From a virus (Duplodnaviria; Heunggongvirae; Uroviricota; Caudoviricetes): a stretch of DNA of 5,689 nt. The stretch is taken from positions 1 through 5,689 of IMG/VR virus record IMGVR_UViG_2648501150_000009; one strand, given 5' to 3'. Positions 1 through 5,689 of this stretch are shown one piece after another. Every line of letters begins with the position of its first letter. Positions within the stretch are counted from its first letter, which is position 1. A model generated the notes under the pieces. That model was not told where the DNA came from. It ran no database searches and was given only the letters and a program-made list of their open reading frames with translations. Position numbers and translations under genes: made by a program.

Positions 1-332
1 CCGCCGCGACTACGGCTGCTGTAGCTGCTGCGAACTCTGCGAATATCGCAAACCAACAGGCACAGCGTGCTGCTAATGCATCAGCCAGCGTTCACCCAAT
101 CACCATTAAGAGCAGTAAGCAAAATCTGGGATTCATAACGTGCGGCACGCGTTCTAATGAAGCTGTAGGCTCTCTGGGATGTACGGTATATGGCGATAGT
201 GAGCGCAGAGAAATTCCATGGAAAACGTGGCCCGGATACGTTCTCGGATCGAAGCTCCCTGCCAGCTATGAAGTAAACGCCGTATCGTTTGATCACTATA
301 ACGGCGTGGCAACGGTCTATTTTGCATATTGA
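1..332 (+). CDS. 3' end of an upstream CDS (partial, start lies outside the window); unknown product with an Ala/Gln-rich low-complexity stretch followed by a Cys-containing C-terminal region
   Basis: Frame 3 is open from the window edge for about 110 codons (…AATTAAVAAANSANIANQQAQRAANASASVHPITIKSS…GVATVYFAY) and ends at TGA 330-332, while the other two + frames hit stops within the first 75 nt. The stop sits 9 nt before the next start, matching the tight packing of the operon. No start is visible, so the product is not identified. Confidence 0.5.
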   Translation, partial: AATTAAVAAANSANIANQQAQRAANASASVHPITIKSSKQNLGFITCGTRSNEAVGSLGCTVYGDSERREIPWKTWPGYVLGSKLPASYEVNAVSFDHYNGVATVYFAY

Positions 333-340
333 GGCTCCGC

Positions 341-1126
341 ATGAAATTCTCCAAATTTTCTGAGTTGGTGAATCGTATTTTGTCCAACAACCACAGCCAT
401 CGTCGCGATATGGATGTAACGATCGTTGTTCATTCGCCTGGCAGCATTGGTTCAACACCCTCAGTTGAGGTTAAGTCAATTCGCGCTGGTTTTGATTGGG
501 ATTCCGGGAAAGTGCTGATTTTCCCAGCACAGCCACTGACCACGCTAACACCAGAACAGATTACTGATATTACTGATAGTGTGCGCAAAGGTCAGTCCTG
601 GCACGCATATCAGGAATACAAGAAGCATAAAGAGCAGTTGGAAAAATTATCGATTGAACTTGATACCGCAAAACAGCGCATTGCAGAGCTGGAGGGTAAT
701 CGCGCGGCGCTGGCTGCGGAGAATGCGAGACTGAAGGCGATATGTGAGGATCGCCGCACGTTTATTATGAATGGCGTGCAGCTTGGTTTTATCAAGGTGC
801 CAACAGTGGAAATAGATCCAGCTCTTGAAACAATTCGTATCGCCCTATCACCACAAAAAACCACTCCTGCGACCGACACTTTCCTGGATGAAGTGAAGAC
901 TGAAGCACGCAAGGAGGGCGCTTACTTTGTGGCGAACAGGATGCTGGCTGCTTGGGAAGCTGGTTTTATTGATGATACTGCGAAGAACGCCGCGGATATT
1001 GCCCGGATGATTCTTACCTCTACTGAGTTTATGGCTAATGCGCGGGAAGGCGATTTTGACCGCTCATTCTCTGATGGCGTTCTCGAAGATATCGCCGAAC
1101 AGCTTAGAAAAGGAGGTAAACAGTGA
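341..1126 (+). CDS. Ead/Ea22-like family phage protein (coiled-coil, 261 aa)
   Basis: ATG at 341 is preceded by GAGG (331-334, 6-nt spacer); the TTG at 329 in the ORF track is less likely. The central heptad-like stretch EQLEKLSIELDTAKQRIAELEGNRAALAAENARLKA and the C-terminal tail AEQLRKGGKQ are what I recall for Ea22-like proteins of lambdoid prophages. It is paralogous to the CDS at 5075..5581 (shared AALAAENA core, TD(T/A)FL(D/A)EV segment and QLRKGGxQ tail). Family assignment is from memory, not a search. Confidence 0.6.
   Translation: MKFSKFSELVNRILSNNHSHRRDMDVTIVVHSPGSIGSTPSVEVKSIRAGFDWDSGKVLIFPAQPLTTLTPEQITDITDSVRKGQSWHAYQEYKKHKEQLEKLSIELDTAKQRIAELEGNRAALAAENARLKAICEDRRTFIMNGVQLGFIKVPTVEIDPALETIRIALSPQKTTPATDTFLDEVKTEARKEGAYFVANRMLAAWEAGFIDDTAKNAADIARMILTSTEFMANAREGDFDRSFSDGVLEDIAEQLRKGGKQ
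702..730 (+). repeat. 29-nt near-identical core shared by the two Ea22-like genes (copy 1; 27/29 identical to 5202..5230)
   Basis: gcgcggcgctggcTgcggagaatgcgAga here against gcgcggcgctggcAgcggagaatgcgGga at 5202-5230. Both encode AALAAENA within the coiled coil; the flanking DNA is much more divergent. Confidence 0.8.
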
Positions 1127-1371
1127 GTAATACCGCACGACTACAGCTTGGTTTTTCACCGCTATCAAAAACCATCGTGTTGGCAAAAATGCGTGACTTA
1201 GGGGATGGAACAAAACGTCGTGTCGGCAATGATCGCGGTCGTGATGTAACCAACGAGGCCGCACAACTCGTTTGGCATCTAGTCATGGCTGAAGGCGGTG
1301 AAATTAATTGGGAGCTGGATGATGGTTCTCGCATGGTATTGAAGGCAGAAAAGCAGGAGCCACCACAGTGA
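1123..1371 (+). CDS. hypothetical small phage protein (82 aa)
   Basis: GTG start at 1123 overlaps the upstream stop (GTGA, 1123-1126) and follows a strong SD AAGGAGGT (1110-1117). Intact 82-codon ORF, translationally coupled on both sides. No recognisable domain. Confidence 0.7.
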   Translation: MSNTARLQLGFSPLSKTIVLAKMRDLGDGTKRRVGNDRGRDVTNEAAQLVWHLVMAEGGEINWELDDGSRMVLKAEKQEPPQ

Positions 1372-1643
1372 ATATCGACACCACGATAACAATCGATACG
1401 GCCCTAAATACCGGTCTGGCACTTTTCGGTTGGCTTTACATCATGTCCCGTACCTGGCGATGGCTGGGTTCCATTTTCCTAAAAGAGTGGAAAAAACGGC
1501 GCAAACAGGAACTACGCCAGAAGGCATTAGAAGCGTTCTATGACGCATTTGAGCTTAGCCGCATTGAACCAGGCACAACAGCCAGAATAGCGACAAAAGG
1601 CGACCTGATGATAGTGATGTTCAGACAGGAGAAAACCAAATGA
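1368..1643 (+). CDS. hypothetical small membrane protein (91 aa) with one predicted transmembrane segment followed by a basic stretch
   Basis: GTG start at 1368 overlaps the upstream stop (GTGA) and follows AGGAG (1355-1359). Hydrophobic stretch ALNTGLALFGWLYIMS…WLGSIFL (about aa 12-38) is followed by KEWKKRRKQELRQK, a positive-inside-type arrangement. Confidence 0.7.
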   Translation: MNIDTTITIDTALNTGLALFGWLYIMSRTWRWLGSIFLKEWKKRRKQELRQKALEAFYDAFELSRIEPGTTARIATKGDLMIVMFRQEKTK

Positions 1644-1864
1644 CAGAACAGACGATGACAAATCGCGAACTTGTTGATGCCGCGATTGAACTTGCTGGCG
1701 ATTTTTATTCCATGATGGGTTACGAGCATCGACCTGGTTTTAAGTATTGGGAGTCACCGCATCCGCAAGAACAACAGGTGTTTGAAATGGCCTGCCGTGC
1801 TTTTGAGGTTATTCGCGGTTCTGATGTGATGGATGCCGTTGCCGACGTGGAGGATGAAGAGTGA
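1640..1864 (+). CDS. hypothetical highly acidic small protein (74 aa)
   Basis: ATG at 1640 overlaps the upstream stop (ATGA) and follows AGGAG (1627-1631, 8-nt spacer). By hand count about 17 D/E against 5 K/R, with an acidic C-terminal tail [10 protein letters not shown]. Confidence 0.75.
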   Translation: MTEQTMTNRELVDAAIELAGDFYSMMGYEHRPGFKYWESPHPQEQQVFEMACRAFEVIRGSDVMDAVADVEDEE

Positions 1865-2172
1865 GCATCATTAAAGAAATGCCGGTAGAACGTGATGAAT
1901 ATGGCTGCTGGACACATCCGGAGTATGAAAAGTTTTGCGCAGGTCGTGAATATATATCCACTGAGGAATTTGACGCCTGGATGAAGGAAAATAATCTTCA
2001 GTGGACTATTCGCAGTATGGATGAAGATGATTTTAATCTGGACGCAGATGGTCCCGATATTGCCGCCTGGGAACCAGTGCGACCAGAGGGCGAAGGATGG
2101 TTTGTTGGCTCTATTCATGACACTGAAGATGGCCCAGTTTGTATCTGGCTGCGGGAGAAGGTTGCCGCATGA
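1861..2172 (+). CDS. hypothetical acidic small protein (103 aa)
   Basis: GTG at 1861 overlaps the upstream stop (GTGA) and follows GGAGGA (1849-1854, 6-nt spacer). By hand count about 25 D/E against 9 K/R. Its stop overlaps the phosphatase start (ATGA at 2169-2172). The Trp/Pro/Gly-rich C-terminal part ([17 protein letters not shown]…VCIWL) faintly recalls small phage DUF-type domains, but I cannot assign it. Confidence 0.7.
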
Positions 2173-2861
2173 ACCAGGCGCTGCATGAAGTGAATTTATA
2201 TAGCCGTATTGATGGTTCAGGCTACAGAAACATATGGGTTGTTGGTGATCTGCATGGTTGCTACACCAGACTGATGTCCGAACTCCATCGTGTGGATTTT
2301 GACCCGGCGCAGGATTTACTGATATCGGTTGGCGACCTTATCGATCGCGGCACCGAAAATGTTGAATGCCTGGAGCTATTGCAGATGCCCTGGTTTCGGT
2401 CGGTTATGGGAAACCACGAGCGATTAATGATCGATGCGTTAAGTCCCGCAGGCAATGTGAATAACTGGCTAATGAATGGCGGTCAATGGTTCTTCATGCT
2501 GGACGCTGATCGGGAAATATTAGCCAGGGCGCTGGTGGAGCTGGTAAGACGTCTTCCCTATATCATTGAGCTGAACACCGGGCATGAAACTATCGTTATA
2601 GCCCATGCCGACTATCCAGGTGGAGAGTACCAGTTCGGTAAGGATGTGTCGCTTTTTGATGTTGTCTGGTCGCGCAGTCGCGTCGGTGATTCTATAGATG
2701 GCATTGGTGGAGAAATCACAGGCGCAGATCGCTTTATCTTTGGGCACACATCGGTACGAAGACCAAAAGCATACTGGAATCAGCACTACATAGACACGGG
2801 CGCGGTTTTTTGCGGAAATCTGACGCTAATGCAGGTGAAGGGAGGGCAGCTTAAAGTCTGA
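2169..2861 (+). CDS. serine/threonine protein phosphatase, lambda PPase / PrpA-PrpB-like metallophosphoesterase (230 aa)
   Basis: Canonical PPP-family motifs are all present: GDLHG (nt 2244-2258), GDLIDRG (nt 2331-2351), GNHE (nt 2409-2420), plus HADYP, WSRSR and the C-terminal IDTGAVF. ATG 2169 follows GGGAGAAGG (2153-2161) and overlaps the upstream stop. The TTG at 2139 from the ORF track is rejected as the start. Confidence 0.93.
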
Positions 2862-2897
2862 TCAAATCATTTACGCACTCAAAATTGCATTAGAACA

Positions 2898-2926
2898 TTG
2901 ATTTTAGTTTTCTAACATATTATTTT
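2898..2926 (+). promoter_or_regulatory. candidate sigma70 promoter in the only sizeable intergenic gap (-35 TTGATT 2898-2903, 17-bp spacer, -10 TATTTT 2921-2926)
   Basis: The AT-rich 98-bp gap (2862-2959) between the phosphatase and the 331-aa CDS contains a -35/-10-like pair with 17-bp spacing. It would drive the downstream module. No convincing Rho-independent terminator hairpin precedes it. The hexamer matches are imperfect. Confidence 0.3.
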
Positions 2927-2959
2927 ACCGCTCGGAACAAAACAGAGTCGGTATGCATT

Positions 2960-3955
2960 ATGAGTGCAATAATCACCCCATATGTCGTAAATGAAACTGG
3001 TGTGGCTGTCTTTCCTGTAGATAAGCCCACCAGCAATTACATCGGCACAGGACGCCGTTTTCTTATATCCCCATTGCCGCGTGAACAGGCTGAAAACACC
3101 CCTGATGGTGTCGTTGACCTGAATTATTCACTGGTTGCCAACCAGTCACTGGCACCCTTTTTTCAAAGTGAGCGTGTATTTAACGCGTTAGGTGGTGAGG
3201 ATTCTCTCGTTCACTGGGTTAGCACCAACATTCACGATTGCCAGGCGCATGATAAGCGCGATTGCAGCCACCAGCTAACCACCCATTTCTATAACGGTTC
3301 TGCCGTTCGCCTGTGCTGGAAGCATGATGCGGAATACATGATGAAGGGATACGGCAAGCTGGAAGACCAACTGTCACTGAATCGCGCCAACTGGATTATG
3401 AACTGGGCTGCCAGCGAGTTAAAACTTCCGCCAGATCGCGATCTGAGCATGGTTGAACTCACCTTTTGGGCCATTCGCCGGAATCTTAAAGACGAACTGC
3501 CTGATGAAGCTGGTCGCATTGCATTTTGTCAGCCAAAAACTGAAATCCCTACCGGCACTCTGAAAGAGTCGGATATTACCTGGGAGCATAGTACCCGCGA
3601 GCTGGTGGATATTTCCGCAGAGCAGATCGTCAATCTGTCCGTCGATGAAGATTCTGGCCTCCTATATATGCGCCGTCCAAAAACCTTACTCGGAAAAAGC
3701 CCGGCTTATCTCCGGTTTGTGGTGTCTCGCCCGTGTGTAGGCTGCGGCGGCAAGGTTAATCACCCATTCATGTACCGCGCCCGCTCGTTAAACGAACACG
3801 ACCGCTGGGCTGTTCCTCTTTGCGATGACTGCGCCAGAAGCGCAGAAAACGATGTCCGGGCATGGGAAAAAGCACATGGCATACGCCTTTACGTAGCCGC
3901 TAACCAGCTTTTCGACTTCGCCATTGAGCGCGGAGTGATCACGTTCAATAACTGA
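2960..3955 (+). CDS. phage protein with C-terminal HNH / His-Me-finger-like zinc-binding motif, possibly DUF968 (YdfU-like) family (331 aa)
   Basis: Intact 331-codon ORF with ATG at 2960 and only a weak upstream SD. The C-terminal segment PCVGCGGKVNHPFMYRARSLNEHDRWAVPLCDDCA (nt about 3734-3832) has the CxxC…H…N…CxxC spacing of HNH/His-Me-finger nucleases. The size and context resemble DUF968 proteins of lambdoid prophages. Family assignment is from memory. Confidence 0.8.
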   Translation: MSAIITPYVVNETGVAVFPVDKPTSNYIGTGRRFLISPLPREQAENTPDGVVDLNYSLVANQSLAPFFQSERVFNALGGEDSLVHWVSTNIHDCQAHDKRDCSHQLTTHFYNGSAVRLCWKHDAEYMMKGYGKLEDQLSLNRANWIMNWAASELKLPPDRDLSMVELTFWAIRRNLKDELPDEAGRIAFCQPKTEIPTGTLKESDITWEHSTRELVDISAEQIVNLSVDEDSGLLYMRRPKTLLGKSPAYLRFVVSRPCVGCGGKVNHPFMYRARSLNEHDRWAVPLCDDCARSAENDVRAWEKAHGIRLYVAANQLFDFAIERGVITFNN

Positions 3956-3968
3956 TGGGAACAATGCA

Positions 3969-4262
3969 ATGAGTCAAGGTAATGGTGACGGAGCTGCAAA
4001 GTGCAGAATCTCCACTTGTTTGATTAATGACAAAAAAATAGAACCGTGCGCGGCGTTGGCACAATCTCTGGAGCAGGATGCTGAATACACGACGCGGAAA
4101 GGTCTGCTGAAATACAAAATCTATAACCATGAATTAATTCATTCACAAGACCTGATCATGCTGCGGTCTGGTGAATTTTCTAAATCGCCTATTCGAGTTT
4201 CATTTTGCCCATTCTGTGGTGAAAGTCTGAAAACGTGGGAAGCGGAGGCAACCAGTGAATAA
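3969..4262 (+). CDS. hypothetical small Cys-containing protein (97 aa), possible zinc ribbon
   Basis: ATG at 3969 lies 13 nt after the upstream stop, with a weak GGGA upstream. Cys pairs CRISTC near the N-terminus and CPFCG near the C-terminus. Its 3' end carries the SD and start of the next gene. Confidence 0.65.
   Translation: MSQGNGDGAAKCRISTCLINDKKIEPCAALAQSLEQDAEYTTRKGLLKYKIYNHELIHSQDLIMLRSGEFSKSPIRVSFCPFCGESLKTWEAEATSE
4244..4258 (+). repeat. 15-nt junction motif GGAGGCAACCAGTGA (SD, 6-nt spacer, GTG start overlapping a stop); identical copy at 5567..5581, variant GGAGGTAAACAGTGA at 1112..1126
   Basis: Exact 15-mer identity between 4244-4258 and 5567-5581, and 13/15 with 1112-1126. 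In each case the GTG is the downstream gene start and TGA or TAA closes the upstream gene. The motif sits in different codon phases of the upstream genes (…EAEATSE* against …RKGGNQ*). Confidence 0.8.
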
Positions 4263-4899
4263 CCGCTTTTACATGATGTGCTTGCGTGAAACTGTGGGTA
4301 ATAACGCCTCATTCCATTGCCATAACGGCAATGGTTACAGTTCTGATATCGATCGCGCTCATGTTTACACGCTGGAAGAAGCCCAAAAAGCCTGGAATTG
4401 TGGTCGAGATATCGATCAGCCTGTTTGCGCTGATAGCGTGGATGCAATGGCTGTGTGGCACGTTGATTGCCAGTACATCCCTACAGAAAGCCTGATTGAG
4501 TCAGATTGCACTGCGTATGTGGCCTACAAAAAAGGTAGCTGGAACGGCAACGATGTTTACTGGCTTCAACACGGTGGATTGCCAACCGATGACTTCAGTA
4601 AAGCGACCATCTTTTGCGTCGCCAACAAAAACGAACCAGGAATAGTTTGGTTGCCATTTTCCATTGCTGATGCAGTAAAGCGCCGGACGTTCAATATCAA
4701 TAACTTTAACCGCAGAACAATGGTTCAGGGCGCAGGTTTGGTCATGCCTGACTGGTTGAAAGAGCAGAACAGAAGAAAGAAGTCGCGAAGCGGGAAGGTG
4801 CGTAGGAATTGTCCGCATTGCGGAAAAATCACCTGGCAGTACAGCCCATATGATTTTGAAGGCTGTCGTGATTACAACTGTGAAGGATGGCGAGAATGA
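4255..4899 (+). CDS. hypothetical Cys/His-rich protein with a C-terminal zinc-ribbon-like motif (214 aa)
   Basis: GTG at 4255 follows GGAGG (4244-4248, 6-nt spacer) and overlaps the upstream stop by 8 nt. A basic stretch NRRKKSRSGKVRRN is followed by CPHCGKITWQYSPYDFEGCRDYNCEGW. An internal ATG at 4273 is an alternative start. Confidence 0.75.
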   Translation: MNNRFYMMCLRETVGNNASFHCHNGNGYSSDIDRAHVYTLEEAQKAWNCGRDIDQPVCADSVDAMAVWHVDCQYIPTESLIESDCTAYVAYKKGSWNGNDVYWLQHGGLPTDDFSKATIFCVANKNEPGIVWLPFSIADAVKRRTFNINNFNRRTMVQGAGLVMPDWLKEQNRRKKSRSGKVRRNCPHCGKITWQYSPYDFEGCRDYNCEGWRE

Positions 4900-5078
4900 C
4901 AATTGACTATCAAGAACTGCGCGAGGCAGCGGAACAGGCAACGCAAGATGAATGGGTAGCATATATTTTGCCGGGTCATAACGGCATTTATCCTGCGCGC
5001 ACGTCTGAGGGTAGGCATTGTGCGGATACTTTATTGACTGGCCTGGCGTCTGTCAGGGGCGGGAGAGCATCAACATGA
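4896..5078 (+). CDS. small ORF (60 aa), possibly the N-terminal module of an Ea22-like gene, either a separate gene or a frameshift remnant
   Basis: ATG 4896 overlaps the upstream stop (ATGA) and follows GAAGGA (4882-4887, 8-nt spacer). Its N-terminus MTIDYQELREAAEQA matches the start of the partial gene at 5578 (SEINYQALREVAERA). Its stop overlaps the start of the next CDS (ATGA at 5075-5078). Confidence 0.55.
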   Translation: MTIDYQELREAAEQATQDEWVAYILPGHNGIYPARTSEGRHCADTLLTGLASVRGGRAST

Positions 5079-5581
5079 GCATCAGAACCTACGCAGTGAA
5101 TTGCAATGACGCATGGCTAAACACCGAAGGTGATGACATCTCCGGCTCATACGTTAAGTACAAAGACCATCAGGAAGTGGTTGCCGCTCTTGAGGCCAAG
5201 TGCGCGGCGCTGGCAGCGGAGAATGCGGGAATAAAGTCTGCAATTCCAGAATCACGGGATATTGAAGATGACAATGACAATATGGATGACGTATCTCTCG
5301 CGGAAGACTTCGGGTTCAATCATGCAATAGAACGGATGAGGAGACAGATACCTGAAACACCAACCACTGATGCTTTCCTGGCTGAAGTCCGGGCGCAGGG
5401 GGTGGATGCTGCTATAGAAGCTGCAAAAAATCTGGTGGCCCAAGAATATGAGTATAAGGATTTCAAAGCGGCGCAGAGTGATTGCTGTATGTACCCTGGT
5501 TCAGACCTGGTAGGGAAGGTTGAAATGACTGAGTGGTTAGTTGACTTTGCTGCCCAGCTTCGCAAAGGAGGCAACCAGTGA
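5075..5581 (+). CDS. Ead/Ea22-like family phage protein, coiled-coil plus C-terminal module (168 aa), paralog of 341..1126
   Basis: ATG 5075 is the first ATG in the frame and follows GGGAGAG (5060-5066). It shares VAALEAKCAALAAENAGIKS, TDAFLAEVRAQGV and the tail AAQLRKGGNQ with the first Ea22-like gene. The TTG at 5018 from the ORF track is rejected as the start. Confidence 0.7.
   Translation: MSIRTYAVNCNDAWLNTEGDDISGSYVKYKDHQEVVAALEAKCAALAAENAGIKSAIPESRDIEDDNDNMDDVSLAEDFGFNHAIERMRRQIPETPTTDAFLAEVRAQGVDAAIEAAKNLVAQEYEYKDFKAAQSDCCMYPGSDLVGKVEMTEWLVDFAAQLRKGGNQ
5202..5230 (+). repeat. 29-nt near-identical core shared by the two Ea22-like genes (copy 2)
   Basis: Direct comparison with 702-730 by eye: 2 mismatches in 29 nt. 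Confidence 0.8.
5567..5581 (+). repeat. second exact copy of the 15-nt junction motif GGAGGCAACCAGTGA
   Basis: Identical to 4244-4258; forms the stop of the second Ea22-like CDS and the SD/start of the downstream gene. Confidence 0.8.
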
Positions 5582-5689
5582 GCGAAATTAATTACCAGGC
5601 ACTGCGTGAGGTGGCGGAACGTGCAATTCCAGCAATGGAACGCCTGTTAATGTTGCCAGCTGATGATGACTTGTTAAGTGAACAGGAAC
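5578..5689 (+). CDS. 5' end of a downstream CDS (partial); N-terminus resembles the 60-aa ORF at 4896
   Basis: GTG at 5578 overlaps the upstream stop (GTGA) and follows AAGGAGG (5565-5570). The frame stays open to the window end (VSEINYQALREVAERAIPAMERLLMLPADDDLLSEQE…). Confidence 0.6.
   Translation, partial: MSEINYQALREVAERAIPAMERLLMLPADDDLLSEQE

Follow-up and report, generated by a model that had tools for sequence, protein, structure and literature searches.

Background

The mosaicism of the lambdoid phages is said to depend in part on short conserved boundary (linker) sequences, as reportedly proposed in the modular theory of Susskind and Botstein and in the analysis of phage HK620 by Clark et al. 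in 2001. The boundary-sequence model has been described in the literature, as has a weakness of the linker view, namely that linkers are rarely identifiable (PMC3029335). We report the analysis of a 5,689-nucleotide (nt) stretch of a tailed-phage record (Caudoviricetes; IMG/VR record IMGVR_UViG_2648501150_000009, positions 1 to 5,689), hereafter the window, in which two Ea22-like genes, here called gene 1 and gene 2, share a 29-nt island of near-identical DNA encoding the peptide AALAAENA. The island is one of four short conserved joints that separate shuffled N-terminal (N), middle and C-terminal (C) modules. It probably acts as a recombination joint in modular Ead/Ea22-like accessory genes, at which crossovers reshuffle modules and delete or add genes.

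As in the lambdoid boundary sequences, short conserved stretches stand here at module edges between unrelated flanks, and homologous recombination through them gives new combinations. The joint at the tail of the Ea22-like genes, in which a ribosome-binding site is combined with GTGA, and the boundary sequence GGAGGCAACCAGTGA at 4244-4258 are classical gene-boundary sequences. The AALAAENA joint (joint 1) and a second joint encoding TPxTDxFL (joint 2) differ from these in being intragenic and situated at domain linkers, so that the products are in-frame hybrid proteins. Recombination at a conserved motif, the His box, was reportedly described by Tetart et al. in 1998 for the tail-fibre genes of T-even phages, and the motifs VENN and PxxxxDPxGL demarcate the CdiA and Rhs polymorphic toxins. 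In these systems too, short conserved coding motifs divide variable domains and supply the homology for swapping; they are, however, unrelated families with other functions, whereas the Ea22-like genes have three variable modules and occur as tandem paralogs in one operon.

The ea22 genes of the Stx phages encode a common N-terminus and coiled coil followed by unrelated C-terminal domains, a mosaic at the level of domains (PMC10834534, PMC7093339). Lambda and Stx ea22 genes are described as mosaic, like those of the window, and encode three-part proteins in which a variable C-terminal domain follows an N-terminal segment and a coiled coil (PMC10834534, PMC7093339), an architecture that the window's proteins may share; the InterPro/Pfam Ead_Ea22 signature spans the N-terminus and coil. 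A prolysogenic function and a tetrameric state are established for the lambda and Stx proteins only (PMC7093339, PMC10834534). Unlike lambda ea22, the window's copies lie on a P1/D6-type plasmid and not between recombination genes and xis/int; gene 1, moreover, has a different N module (phrog_6026) and fails the Pfam Ead_Ea22 model, and there is no sequence match to any solved structure, the lambda Ea22 C-terminal domain included. The published ea22 work treats domain-level mosaicism only, without nucleotide-level joints, and in the literature searched we found no publication tying Ea22-like genes to phage-plasmids in this sense.

Among the phage-plasmids, orf92 and orf100 of phage D6 (NC_050154; Gilcrease and Casjens) are close known counterparts. 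D6 likewise has an operon between ref and hot/humD in which these two Ea22-like genes stand on either side of a common gene set (DUF4752, a ppp-like phosphatase, a DUF968/HNH gene and a upf87.4-like gene), and it is 92% identical to the window over 1366-4258. It differs in carrying other Ea22-like modules at both positions and an island-like core, with 3 mismatches, in one gene only of the fetched stretch.

Results and discussion

Two diverged Ea22-like genes share short in-frame islands

The two copies of the core, at 702-730 (GCGCGGCGCTGGCTGCGGAGAATGCGAGA) and 5202-5230 (GCGCGGCGCTGGCAGCGGAGAATGCGGGA), agree at 27 of 29 positions, lie in frame in both genes and encode AALAAENA. A search of the window with up to 3 mismatches returns exactly two copies, and two copies were found in none of 200 dinucleotide-preserving shuffles. 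With a repeat finder the similarity widens to 56 nt (681-736 and 5181-5236, 79% identity) at a spacing of exactly 4500 nt. A second shared island, at 863-894 and 5357-5388, encodes TP(A/T)TD(T/A)FL and is 75% identical; a third comprises the tail and its GTGA junction, at 1100-1126 and 5555-5581, with 85% identity over 27 nt. The core and the related tail and junction had been noticed in a sequence-only reading of the window, and in both cases the observation held. The proteins of gene 1 and gene 2 are homologous and far diverged, with 28% identity by BLASTP (E 8e-08).

These islands divide both genes, which lie on the plus strand like all the genes and joints of the window described below, into corresponding parts. 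Gene 1 (341-1126; 261 amino acids) consists of an N module from 341 to about 680, joint 1 at 681-736 (with the AALAAENA codons at 704-727, inside a predicted long helix), a middle module at 737-862, joint 2 at 863-894 (TPATDTFLDEV, the first copy of the direct repeat), a C module at 895-1099 and the tail joint at 1100-1126 (AEQLRKGGKQ-stop), in which AGGAGG serves as ribosome-binding site and the following gene starts at an overlapping GTG. In gene 2 (5075-5581; 168 amino acids) the N module at 5075-5180, joint 1 at 5181-5236, the middle module at 5237-5356, joint 2 at 5357-5388 (TPTTDAFLAEV), the C module at 5389-5554 and the tail joint at 5555-5581 (AAQLRKGGNQ-stop, again with a ribosome-binding site and the GTG start of the following gene) succeed one another in the same order.

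In Escherichia coli, 590 of 5426 complete genomes contain the core zone, which is found at 423 places on chromosomes and 317 on plasmids. An exact-pattern scan of species-representative genomes gave 15 matches, of which about half are chance matches in unrelated high-GC bacteria and the credible ones fall in Enterobacter, Citrobacter and Shimwellia. The peptide is Ala-rich and such stray matches exist, so one might suspect a coincidence or a low-complexity artefact of Ala-rich coding sequence; this explanation is already refuted, and has next to no probability, given the shuffles, the in-frame placement at equivalent positions of two homologous genes beside two more collinear islands, and the recurrence of the core in hundreds of related genes.

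Homology to related loci breaks off at the joints

The window was compared with about 300 related loci, comprising viral contigs chosen by gene 2, gene 1 or a degenerate core motif, and annotated E. coli and phage records. We defined a breakpoint as a point at which an alignment to the window (at least 88% identity over at least 100 nt) stops inside a locus, and found 191 distinct breakpoints between the window and 282 of the loci. Of these, 106 are no more than 30 nt away from a gene edge, such positions amounting to 14.8% of the window. A further 58 map inside genes, to the four zones formed by both cores and both TPxTDxFL islands, and the remaining 27 lie elsewhere. None of the 191 falls between 2200 and 3950.

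Within gene 1, 25 of the 34 interior breakpoints are in the joint 1 zone at 680-740 (binomial P 3e-20) and 8 are in joint 2, which together account for 33 of the 34. Within gene 2 the core zone (5180-5240) holds 10 of 30 and joint 2 holds 15 (25 of 30 together), and many relatives align with gene 2 from residue 39 onward only. The whole window was the basis for selecting matches in the E. coli genome collection, and these start at 701, 704, 707, 863 and 872 and end at 5399-5406. Breakpoints inside the core, which the earlier reading had proposed to look for in relatives, are therefore present, and the edges of the variable region do involve the Ea22-like genes, contrary to the alternative that they would bear no relation to them.

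Across 1123-4899 the breakpoints in relatives are almost exclusively at gene boundaries. Clusters occur at 1075-1149, 4225-4274 and 5575-5624, and 18 distinct breakpoints fall at 4900-4924. A 15-nt sequence, GGAGG(C/T)AA(C/A)CAGTGA, in which a ribosome-binding site, a stop codon and an overlapping GTG start are combined, is found at 1112-1126, 4244-4258 and 5567-5581. Because breakpoints cluster at all three copies, this boundary sequence appears to act as a general gene-boundary joint; the copy at 4244-4258 is hosted by an open reading frame (ORF) of 97 amino acids that was scored as belonging to no Ead/Ea22 family.

Modules are shuffled around islands conserved at the nucleotide level

Among the related loci the island occurs in 137 distinct in-frame contexts, in which 37 left-flank types and 45 right-flank types are joined in 76 combinations. 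In 11 quartets, two left-flank and two right-flank types occur in every one of their four possible pairings, and the bipartite graph of flanks has a cycle rank of 8; because the graph has cycles, divergence without exchange is ruled out as the source of this assortment. The left-flank types are mostly unalignable, with similarity in 51 of 666 type pairs. In our protein alignment of the family (A1) one N module is joined to at least 6 middle modules and to five C modules, and the canonical Ead/Ea22 N domain is found joined to the middle and C modules of gene 1.

For gene pairs that differ in both flanks, aligned without gaps and anchored on the motif, nucleotide identity is about 0.27 in the flanks, rises to 0.44-0.61 over the 24 nt before the motif and reaches 0.90-0.93 over the 24 nt of the motif itself; it is 0.5-0.6 over the next 12 nt and then returns to 0.28. 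Codon usage within the core is equally distinct. GCG makes up 24% of Ala codons in the flanks and 79-93% at core codons 1, 2, 5 and 8, GAG rises from 41% of Glu codons in the flanks to 96% in the core, and AAT from 45% of Asn codons to 93%. The same codon is used at frequencies of 0.64-0.92 in the core, against the 0.26-0.52 expected from flank codon usage.

These figures bear directly on the question of whether the coiled-coil peptide is simply kept by selection on the protein, with no special role for recombination. Constraint on the peptide is real to some degree: A1 shows no variation at L124, E127 and N128 and hardly any at A125 and A126. AlphaFold2 (AF2) modelling of gene 1 from an alignment of 26 sequences gave a mean predicted local distance difference test (pLDDT) score of 56, too low to base a fold search on; the flanking domains are poorly predicted, and the only confident element is a long helix at residues 87-147 (pLDDT 71-89), inside which the island lies. 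The modelled helix is probably a coiled coil, and a manual reading of the heptads would place N128 of gene 1 and N50 of gene 2 at an 'a' position. A long helix with an invariant Asn argues that AALAAENA is constrained, and to this extent the suggestion of functional constraint on the coiled-coil register stands. Amino-acid conservation falls short, however, of explaining the nucleotide identity, given the excess of identical codons; nor does it account for the concentration of breakpoints and mapped chimera junctions in the island or for the combinatorial assortment of its flanks. As the sole explanation, protein constraint is already contradicted and we regard it as very unlikely.

Third-position identity among island copies is about 0.77. 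The simplest account of this conservation is that the island copies are of fairly recent common ancestry and that their flanks have been replaced many times.

The other joints behave in the same way, although their motifs played no part in the selection of loci. TPxTDxFL, QLRKGG and an N-terminal YQALREAAE motif each stand out as a sharp island, 30-60 nt long, with shuffled sequence on either side; the numbers of quartets are 15, 7 and 9 respectively. The N-terminal motif is conserved as IDYQELREAAE in a 63-amino-acid ORF just upstream of gene 2, where it constitutes a further joint. Synonymous identity at the tail joint is very high (0.90) because it supplies the following gene with its AGGAGG ribosome-binding site and start codon.

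Natural recombinants

Genes with exchange points inside the island are found in nature. In plasmid pE2863-2 (L003) and several viral contigs the gene corresponds to gene 1 up to and including 714 and to gene 2 from 728 onward. In four viral contigs, an intact gene of 246 amino acids has the N module of gene 1 fused to the middle and C modules of gene 2 with no cassette in between; the parent switches at 700-715 (for example in L108), and immediately after the fused gene comes the one found after gene 2 in the window. When the predicted deletion junction was used as a query, one-piece matches of about 98.7% identity were found in many E. coli chromosomes. The suggestion that fused Ea22-like genes lacking the intervening cassette should be sought has in this way been answered positively, both in viral contigs and in chromosomes.

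One of the chromosomal loci (L299, from E. coli S4) is a lambdoid prophage with its excisionase and integrase genes beside yecN and cmoA, in which the fused allele lies upstream of xis and int in the early-left operon. Its positions 9006-9746 correspond to 336-736 and 5181-5689 of the window, the modules being shared at 96.5-98% nucleotide identity, and such near-identity indicates recent gene flow between lambdoid prophages and P1/D6-type plasmids.

A core-to-core deletion is seen in plasmid JS316 (L001), and it joins a pair of genes other than gene 1 and gene 2. A further core-bearing Ea22-like paralog, gene U (RLEKAC-AALAAENA), is present in L001, L003 and L004 two genes upstream of gene 1, just outside the left edge of the window. 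To the left and right of the junction, JS316 and the L003 and L004 backbones are collinear, and what JS316 lacks is the 1.18 kb between the gene U core and the gene 1 core (L001 3001-3032 against L004 2524 and 3704, just left of the window). The result is an in-frame hybrid of the N-terminal part of gene U with the middle and C modules of gene 1, the junction lying in the core. Joint 2 is also used: plasmid p2022H047-2 (L298) has the gene 1 N module, then a third type of middle module, then the gene 2 C module, with a change of parent at joint 2 of gene 2, in a permuted neighbourhood.

As a side observation, Escherichia phage Av-05 (L002, KM190144; positions 2884-5322) carries homologues of an Ea22-like gene, the 214-amino-acid gene, the upstream gene and the gene 1 N module in permuted order. 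The record is classed in the Vequintavirinae, and its content reflects either a real transfer into a virulent phage or a chimeric assembly.

The sequence-only reading had envisaged recombination through the island as a means of swapping or deleting the 4-kb cassette. The role of the joints is supported; movement of the cassette as one unit is not. The window has a spacing of 4500 nt from its gene 1-N-type core to its gene 2-C-type core; in relatives this distance is about 3700 nt (3 loci), about 600 nt (7 loci) or 0 (18 loci), and in L004 an extra Ea22-like gene is inserted after gene 1 with tail junction sequence on its flanks. Because the spacings vary and this insertion has tail junctions, the intervening genes appear to be gained and lost singly at gene-boundary joints.

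Rearrangement at repeated sequences may also be programmed. Here a site-specific recombinase, or else a homing-type nuclease such as the DUF968/HNH-like protein, would shuffle modules at high frequency by acting on the island. An HNH-like DUF968 gene does lie between the two copies, and a Ref nuclease gene stands just upstream of the operon in related plasmids. Recombinase or invertase domains, on the other hand, were not found in the window, and the island copies within each locus are always on the same strand (both strands in 0 of 275 loci), which together exclude a shufflon-type system. Fused alleles and joints also occur in prophages with no DUF968 gene in the local neighbourhood, the four joints have different sequences and behave alike, and copies in the same genome differ by about 2.5 nt in 24. 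Programmed diversification is, on these grounds, highly improbable.

A proposed mechanism

The observations can be drawn together in the following probable scheme. Gene 1 and gene 2 are members of a large modular Ead/Ea22-like family that circulates among temperate phages of the Enterobacteriaceae, both lambdoid prophages and P1/D6-type phage-plasmids. Each gene is built from N, middle and C modules bounded by the joints IDYQALREAAE (at the N-terminus of canonical members), AALAAENA, TPxTDxFL and a QLRKGGxQ-stop tail, the last of which also provides the gene after it with a ribosome-binding site and a start. The island is the sole DNA homology between otherwise unalignable genes, and general homologous recombination probably crosses over within it. 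A crossover between alleles of different genomes would reshuffle modules; one between directly oriented paralogs on a single replicon would delete the intervening genes (or, reciprocally, add them) and leave an in-frame hybrid. Candidate enzymes are, in lambdoid prophages, Rad52-type annealases such as Red-beta, RecT or Erf, and host RecA, possibly aided by the P1-type Ref nuclease that these plasmids encode just upstream. What is found at the island agrees with what is expected of a boundary joint: a short conserved sequence between unrelated flanks, breakpoints that coincide with it, and natural exchange intervals inside it (714-728 in L003, 700-715 in L108, and JS316). Rad52-like phage recombinases are known to recombine short, diverged homologies (PMC3945230).

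A number of points weigh against this scheme. The breakpoints are BLAST alignment ends and hence approximate, and they come from phylogenetically non-independent loci, chosen for their resemblance to gene 1, to gene 2 or to the core motif. The exact gene 1 x gene 2 deletion on this plasmid backbone was not found among the related loci, nor was the reciprocal gene, with the N module of gene 2 and the C module of gene 1. A DUF4752 gene lies upstream of the fused gene in L108 and L299, and because the fused alleles have other neighbours, several events must separate them from the window. Efficient RecA-dependent exchange usually takes roughly 20-30 bp; the window's two core copies have perfect runs of just 13 and 12 nt in common, so that deletions between them should seldom occur in this molecule. 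Codon 4 of the island (713-715 and 5213-5215) is free, with GCT in 43, GCG in 19, GCA in 11 and GCC in 3 of 76 representatives, and the synonymous sites neighbouring it are 79-96% fixed, an unevenness that purely neutral recent ancestry does not predict. Finally, island differences per 24 nt are 2.48 within loci and 2.50 between loci, and 875 of 2000 permutations reach the observed value.

Two candidates were rejected on the same evidence. The fused gene of L108 and the chimera of p2022H047-2 are not plain cassette-deletion derivatives, in view of the upstream DUF4752 gene of the former (as in L299) and the third type of middle module and permuted neighbourhood of the latter. Intragenomic gene conversion was likewise rejected as the cause of island uniformity, since within- and between-locus differences are equal. 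Among 55 locus strands with two or three island copies, identical pairs within a genome amount to 1 of 42, against 5.8% between loci; selection against perfectly repeated, operon-destabilising joints would fit this difference, which is not significant.

The free codon 4 among nearly fixed neighbours, and the failure of intragenomic conversion to explain uniformity, also invite the idea that an embedded nucleic-acid signal (an RNA structure, a protein-binding site or a Chi-like hotspot) fixes the nucleotides, with recombination as a by-product or stimulated by it. Replacing one base of codon 4, which turns Ala into Val and the peptide into AALVAENA, creates a perfect Chi octamer, GCTGGTGG, which is present in 11 of 202 island contexts. 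Both window copies lack Chi, however, reading GCTGGCTG and GCTGGCAG at this place; Rfam gives no match at E up to 1; the core zone folds no better than shuffles on both strands (z from -0.45 to +0.87); and the island pattern recurs at three other joints of different sequence, a recurrence that points to a general process and not to one motif. An RNA element and a Chi hotspot at the island were accordingly both set aside, for want of an Rfam match and of folding beyond that of shuffles at either copy in the one case and of the octamer in either window copy in the other, and a signal of any such kind has only a small probability. A Chi-bearing AALVAENA island is seen, for example, at L298 6524-6547, and in the window itself Chi sites occur at 2531 and 3601 on the plus strand and at 3027 and 3268 on the minus strand.

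The unevenness at codon 4 and the lack of homogenisation within genomes are not accounted for by neutral processes alone, and this raises a stronger version of the recombination-joint reading, which we consider unlikely. It holds that the joints, instead of being passive remnants of common descent, are kept at the nucleotide level as recombination linkers and that the family is a combinatorial polymorphic effector system, diversified in conflict with hosts or rival phages, whose synonymous sites might be maintained by selection or by a sequence-directed factor, such as the neighbouring Ref nuclease or the latent Chi one mutation away.

Layout of the window and family membership

The best matches of the window are E. 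coli plasmids of 90-97 kb and the phage-plasmids D6, P7 and P1. In the matching records, ref and a DUF4406 gene stand at one end of the operon, and hot, humD and phd/doc lie towards the other. Judged by these matches, the locus is a P1/D6-type phage-plasmid operon between ref and hot/humD and no lambdoid prophage, so that the prophage context first assumed for it has to be given up. Both Ea22-like genes proposed to bracket the cassette are present; the window nevertheless contains four Ea22-type ORFs (341-1126, 4887-5078, 5075-5581 and one from 5578), and the picture of two genes around a cassette is partly a consequence of where the window ends.

The window opens with the 3' part of an upstream gene (1-332; phrog_8805, function unknown, PHROG E 7e-71). 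Between gene 1 and the Ea22-type ORFs on its far side lie the intervening accessory genes (1123-4899), mostly linked by ATGA or GTGA start-stop overlaps: DUF7446 (1123-1371), DUF4752 (1368-1643), ORFs of 74 (1640-1864) and 103 amino acids (1861-2172), a Ppp-like metallophosphatase (2169-2861), the DUF968/HNH-like gene (2960-3955), the 97-amino-acid ORF (3969-4262), at whose end the boundary sequence at 4244-4258 stands as the third copy in direct repeat, and the 214-amino-acid ORF (4255-4899). PADLOC returned no defence annotation for any of 10 proteins.

The window has only one real intergenic gap, an AT-rich segment at 2862-2959 that precedes the DUF968 gene. Simple scans for sigma-70 promoters and for terminators gave no candidate in it; because equivalent P1 operons carry C1 operators, a repressor operator could sit here, as a candidate suggested by analogy. 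We also noted a perfect 16-nt inverted repeat, 3124-3139 and 4247-4262, with one arm in the DUF968 gene and the other in the boundary sequence. It was rejected as an element, since its arms vary independently (perfectly complementary in 1 of 4 loci) and 5 of 300 shuffles match it, and it is probably due to chance.

Both genes belong to phrog_368, which matches gene 1 with E 2.7e-59 (residues 17-261) and gene 2 with E 5.5e-51 (residues 25-168); the N-terminus of this profile is matched by the 63-amino-acid ORF and by the ORF from 5578. With the Pfam PF13935 (Ead_Ea22) gathering cut-off at 27 bits, the 63-amino-acid ORF scores 46.1 bits (profile 2-45), gene 2 43.3 bits (profile 48-138) and the ORF from 5578 37.2 bits (profile 1-29). 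This last ORF (5578-5689, SEINYQALREVAERA...; E 5e-09) is the start of a further Ead/Ea22-like gene, which the end of the window cuts. Gene 1 has no match to Pfam Ead_Ea22 at E up to 0.01, and its ties to the family are phrog_368, the BLASTP match to gene 2 and the shared joints only. A fused allele with the gene 1 N module passes the Pfam model by way of its gene 2-type part. The relatives of gene 1 number 4404 at E up to 0.001, mainly in E. coli and Salmonella. No Protein Data Bank (PDB) sequence, the lambda Ea22 C-terminal domain included, matched gene 2 at E up to 1, and a PDB search with the A1 profile gave just chance-level coiled-coil matches.

The 63-amino-acid ORF (4887-5078) encodes the N-terminal third of the Ead/Ea22 domain and is coupled to gene 2 by an ATGA overlap, the two together making up one full Ead_Ea22 domain over two reading frames. 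This split form is widespread, and the JS316 annotation gives it as two coding sequences. Breakpoints of relatives lie inside the 63-amino-acid ORF at 4968 and 5002-5047, which suggests that the split arose by recombination.

Conclusions

The shared island is a well-supported and unusually clean example of mosaicism through short conserved boundary sequences, a known phenomenon, and represents no new kind of system. Phage mosaics have been explained either by homologous exchange at short conserved linkers or by illegitimate recombination followed by selection, and the locus is a compact and quantifiable case for linkers, with four joints per gene, dozens of module types and junctions located to within about 15 nt or less. 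About the function of the Ea22-like proteins the joints tell us nothing new, and the enzymes named above are candidates put forward from sequence. The locus does offer a tractable experimental substrate for recombination on homologies of 24-56 nt. The joints explain why Ea22-like genes are inconsistently annotated and why the operon differs between otherwise similar plasmids, and the modules held in common, at 97-99% identity, by chromosomal lambdoid prophages and P1/D6-type phage-plasmids document gene flow between two very different kinds of temperate element.

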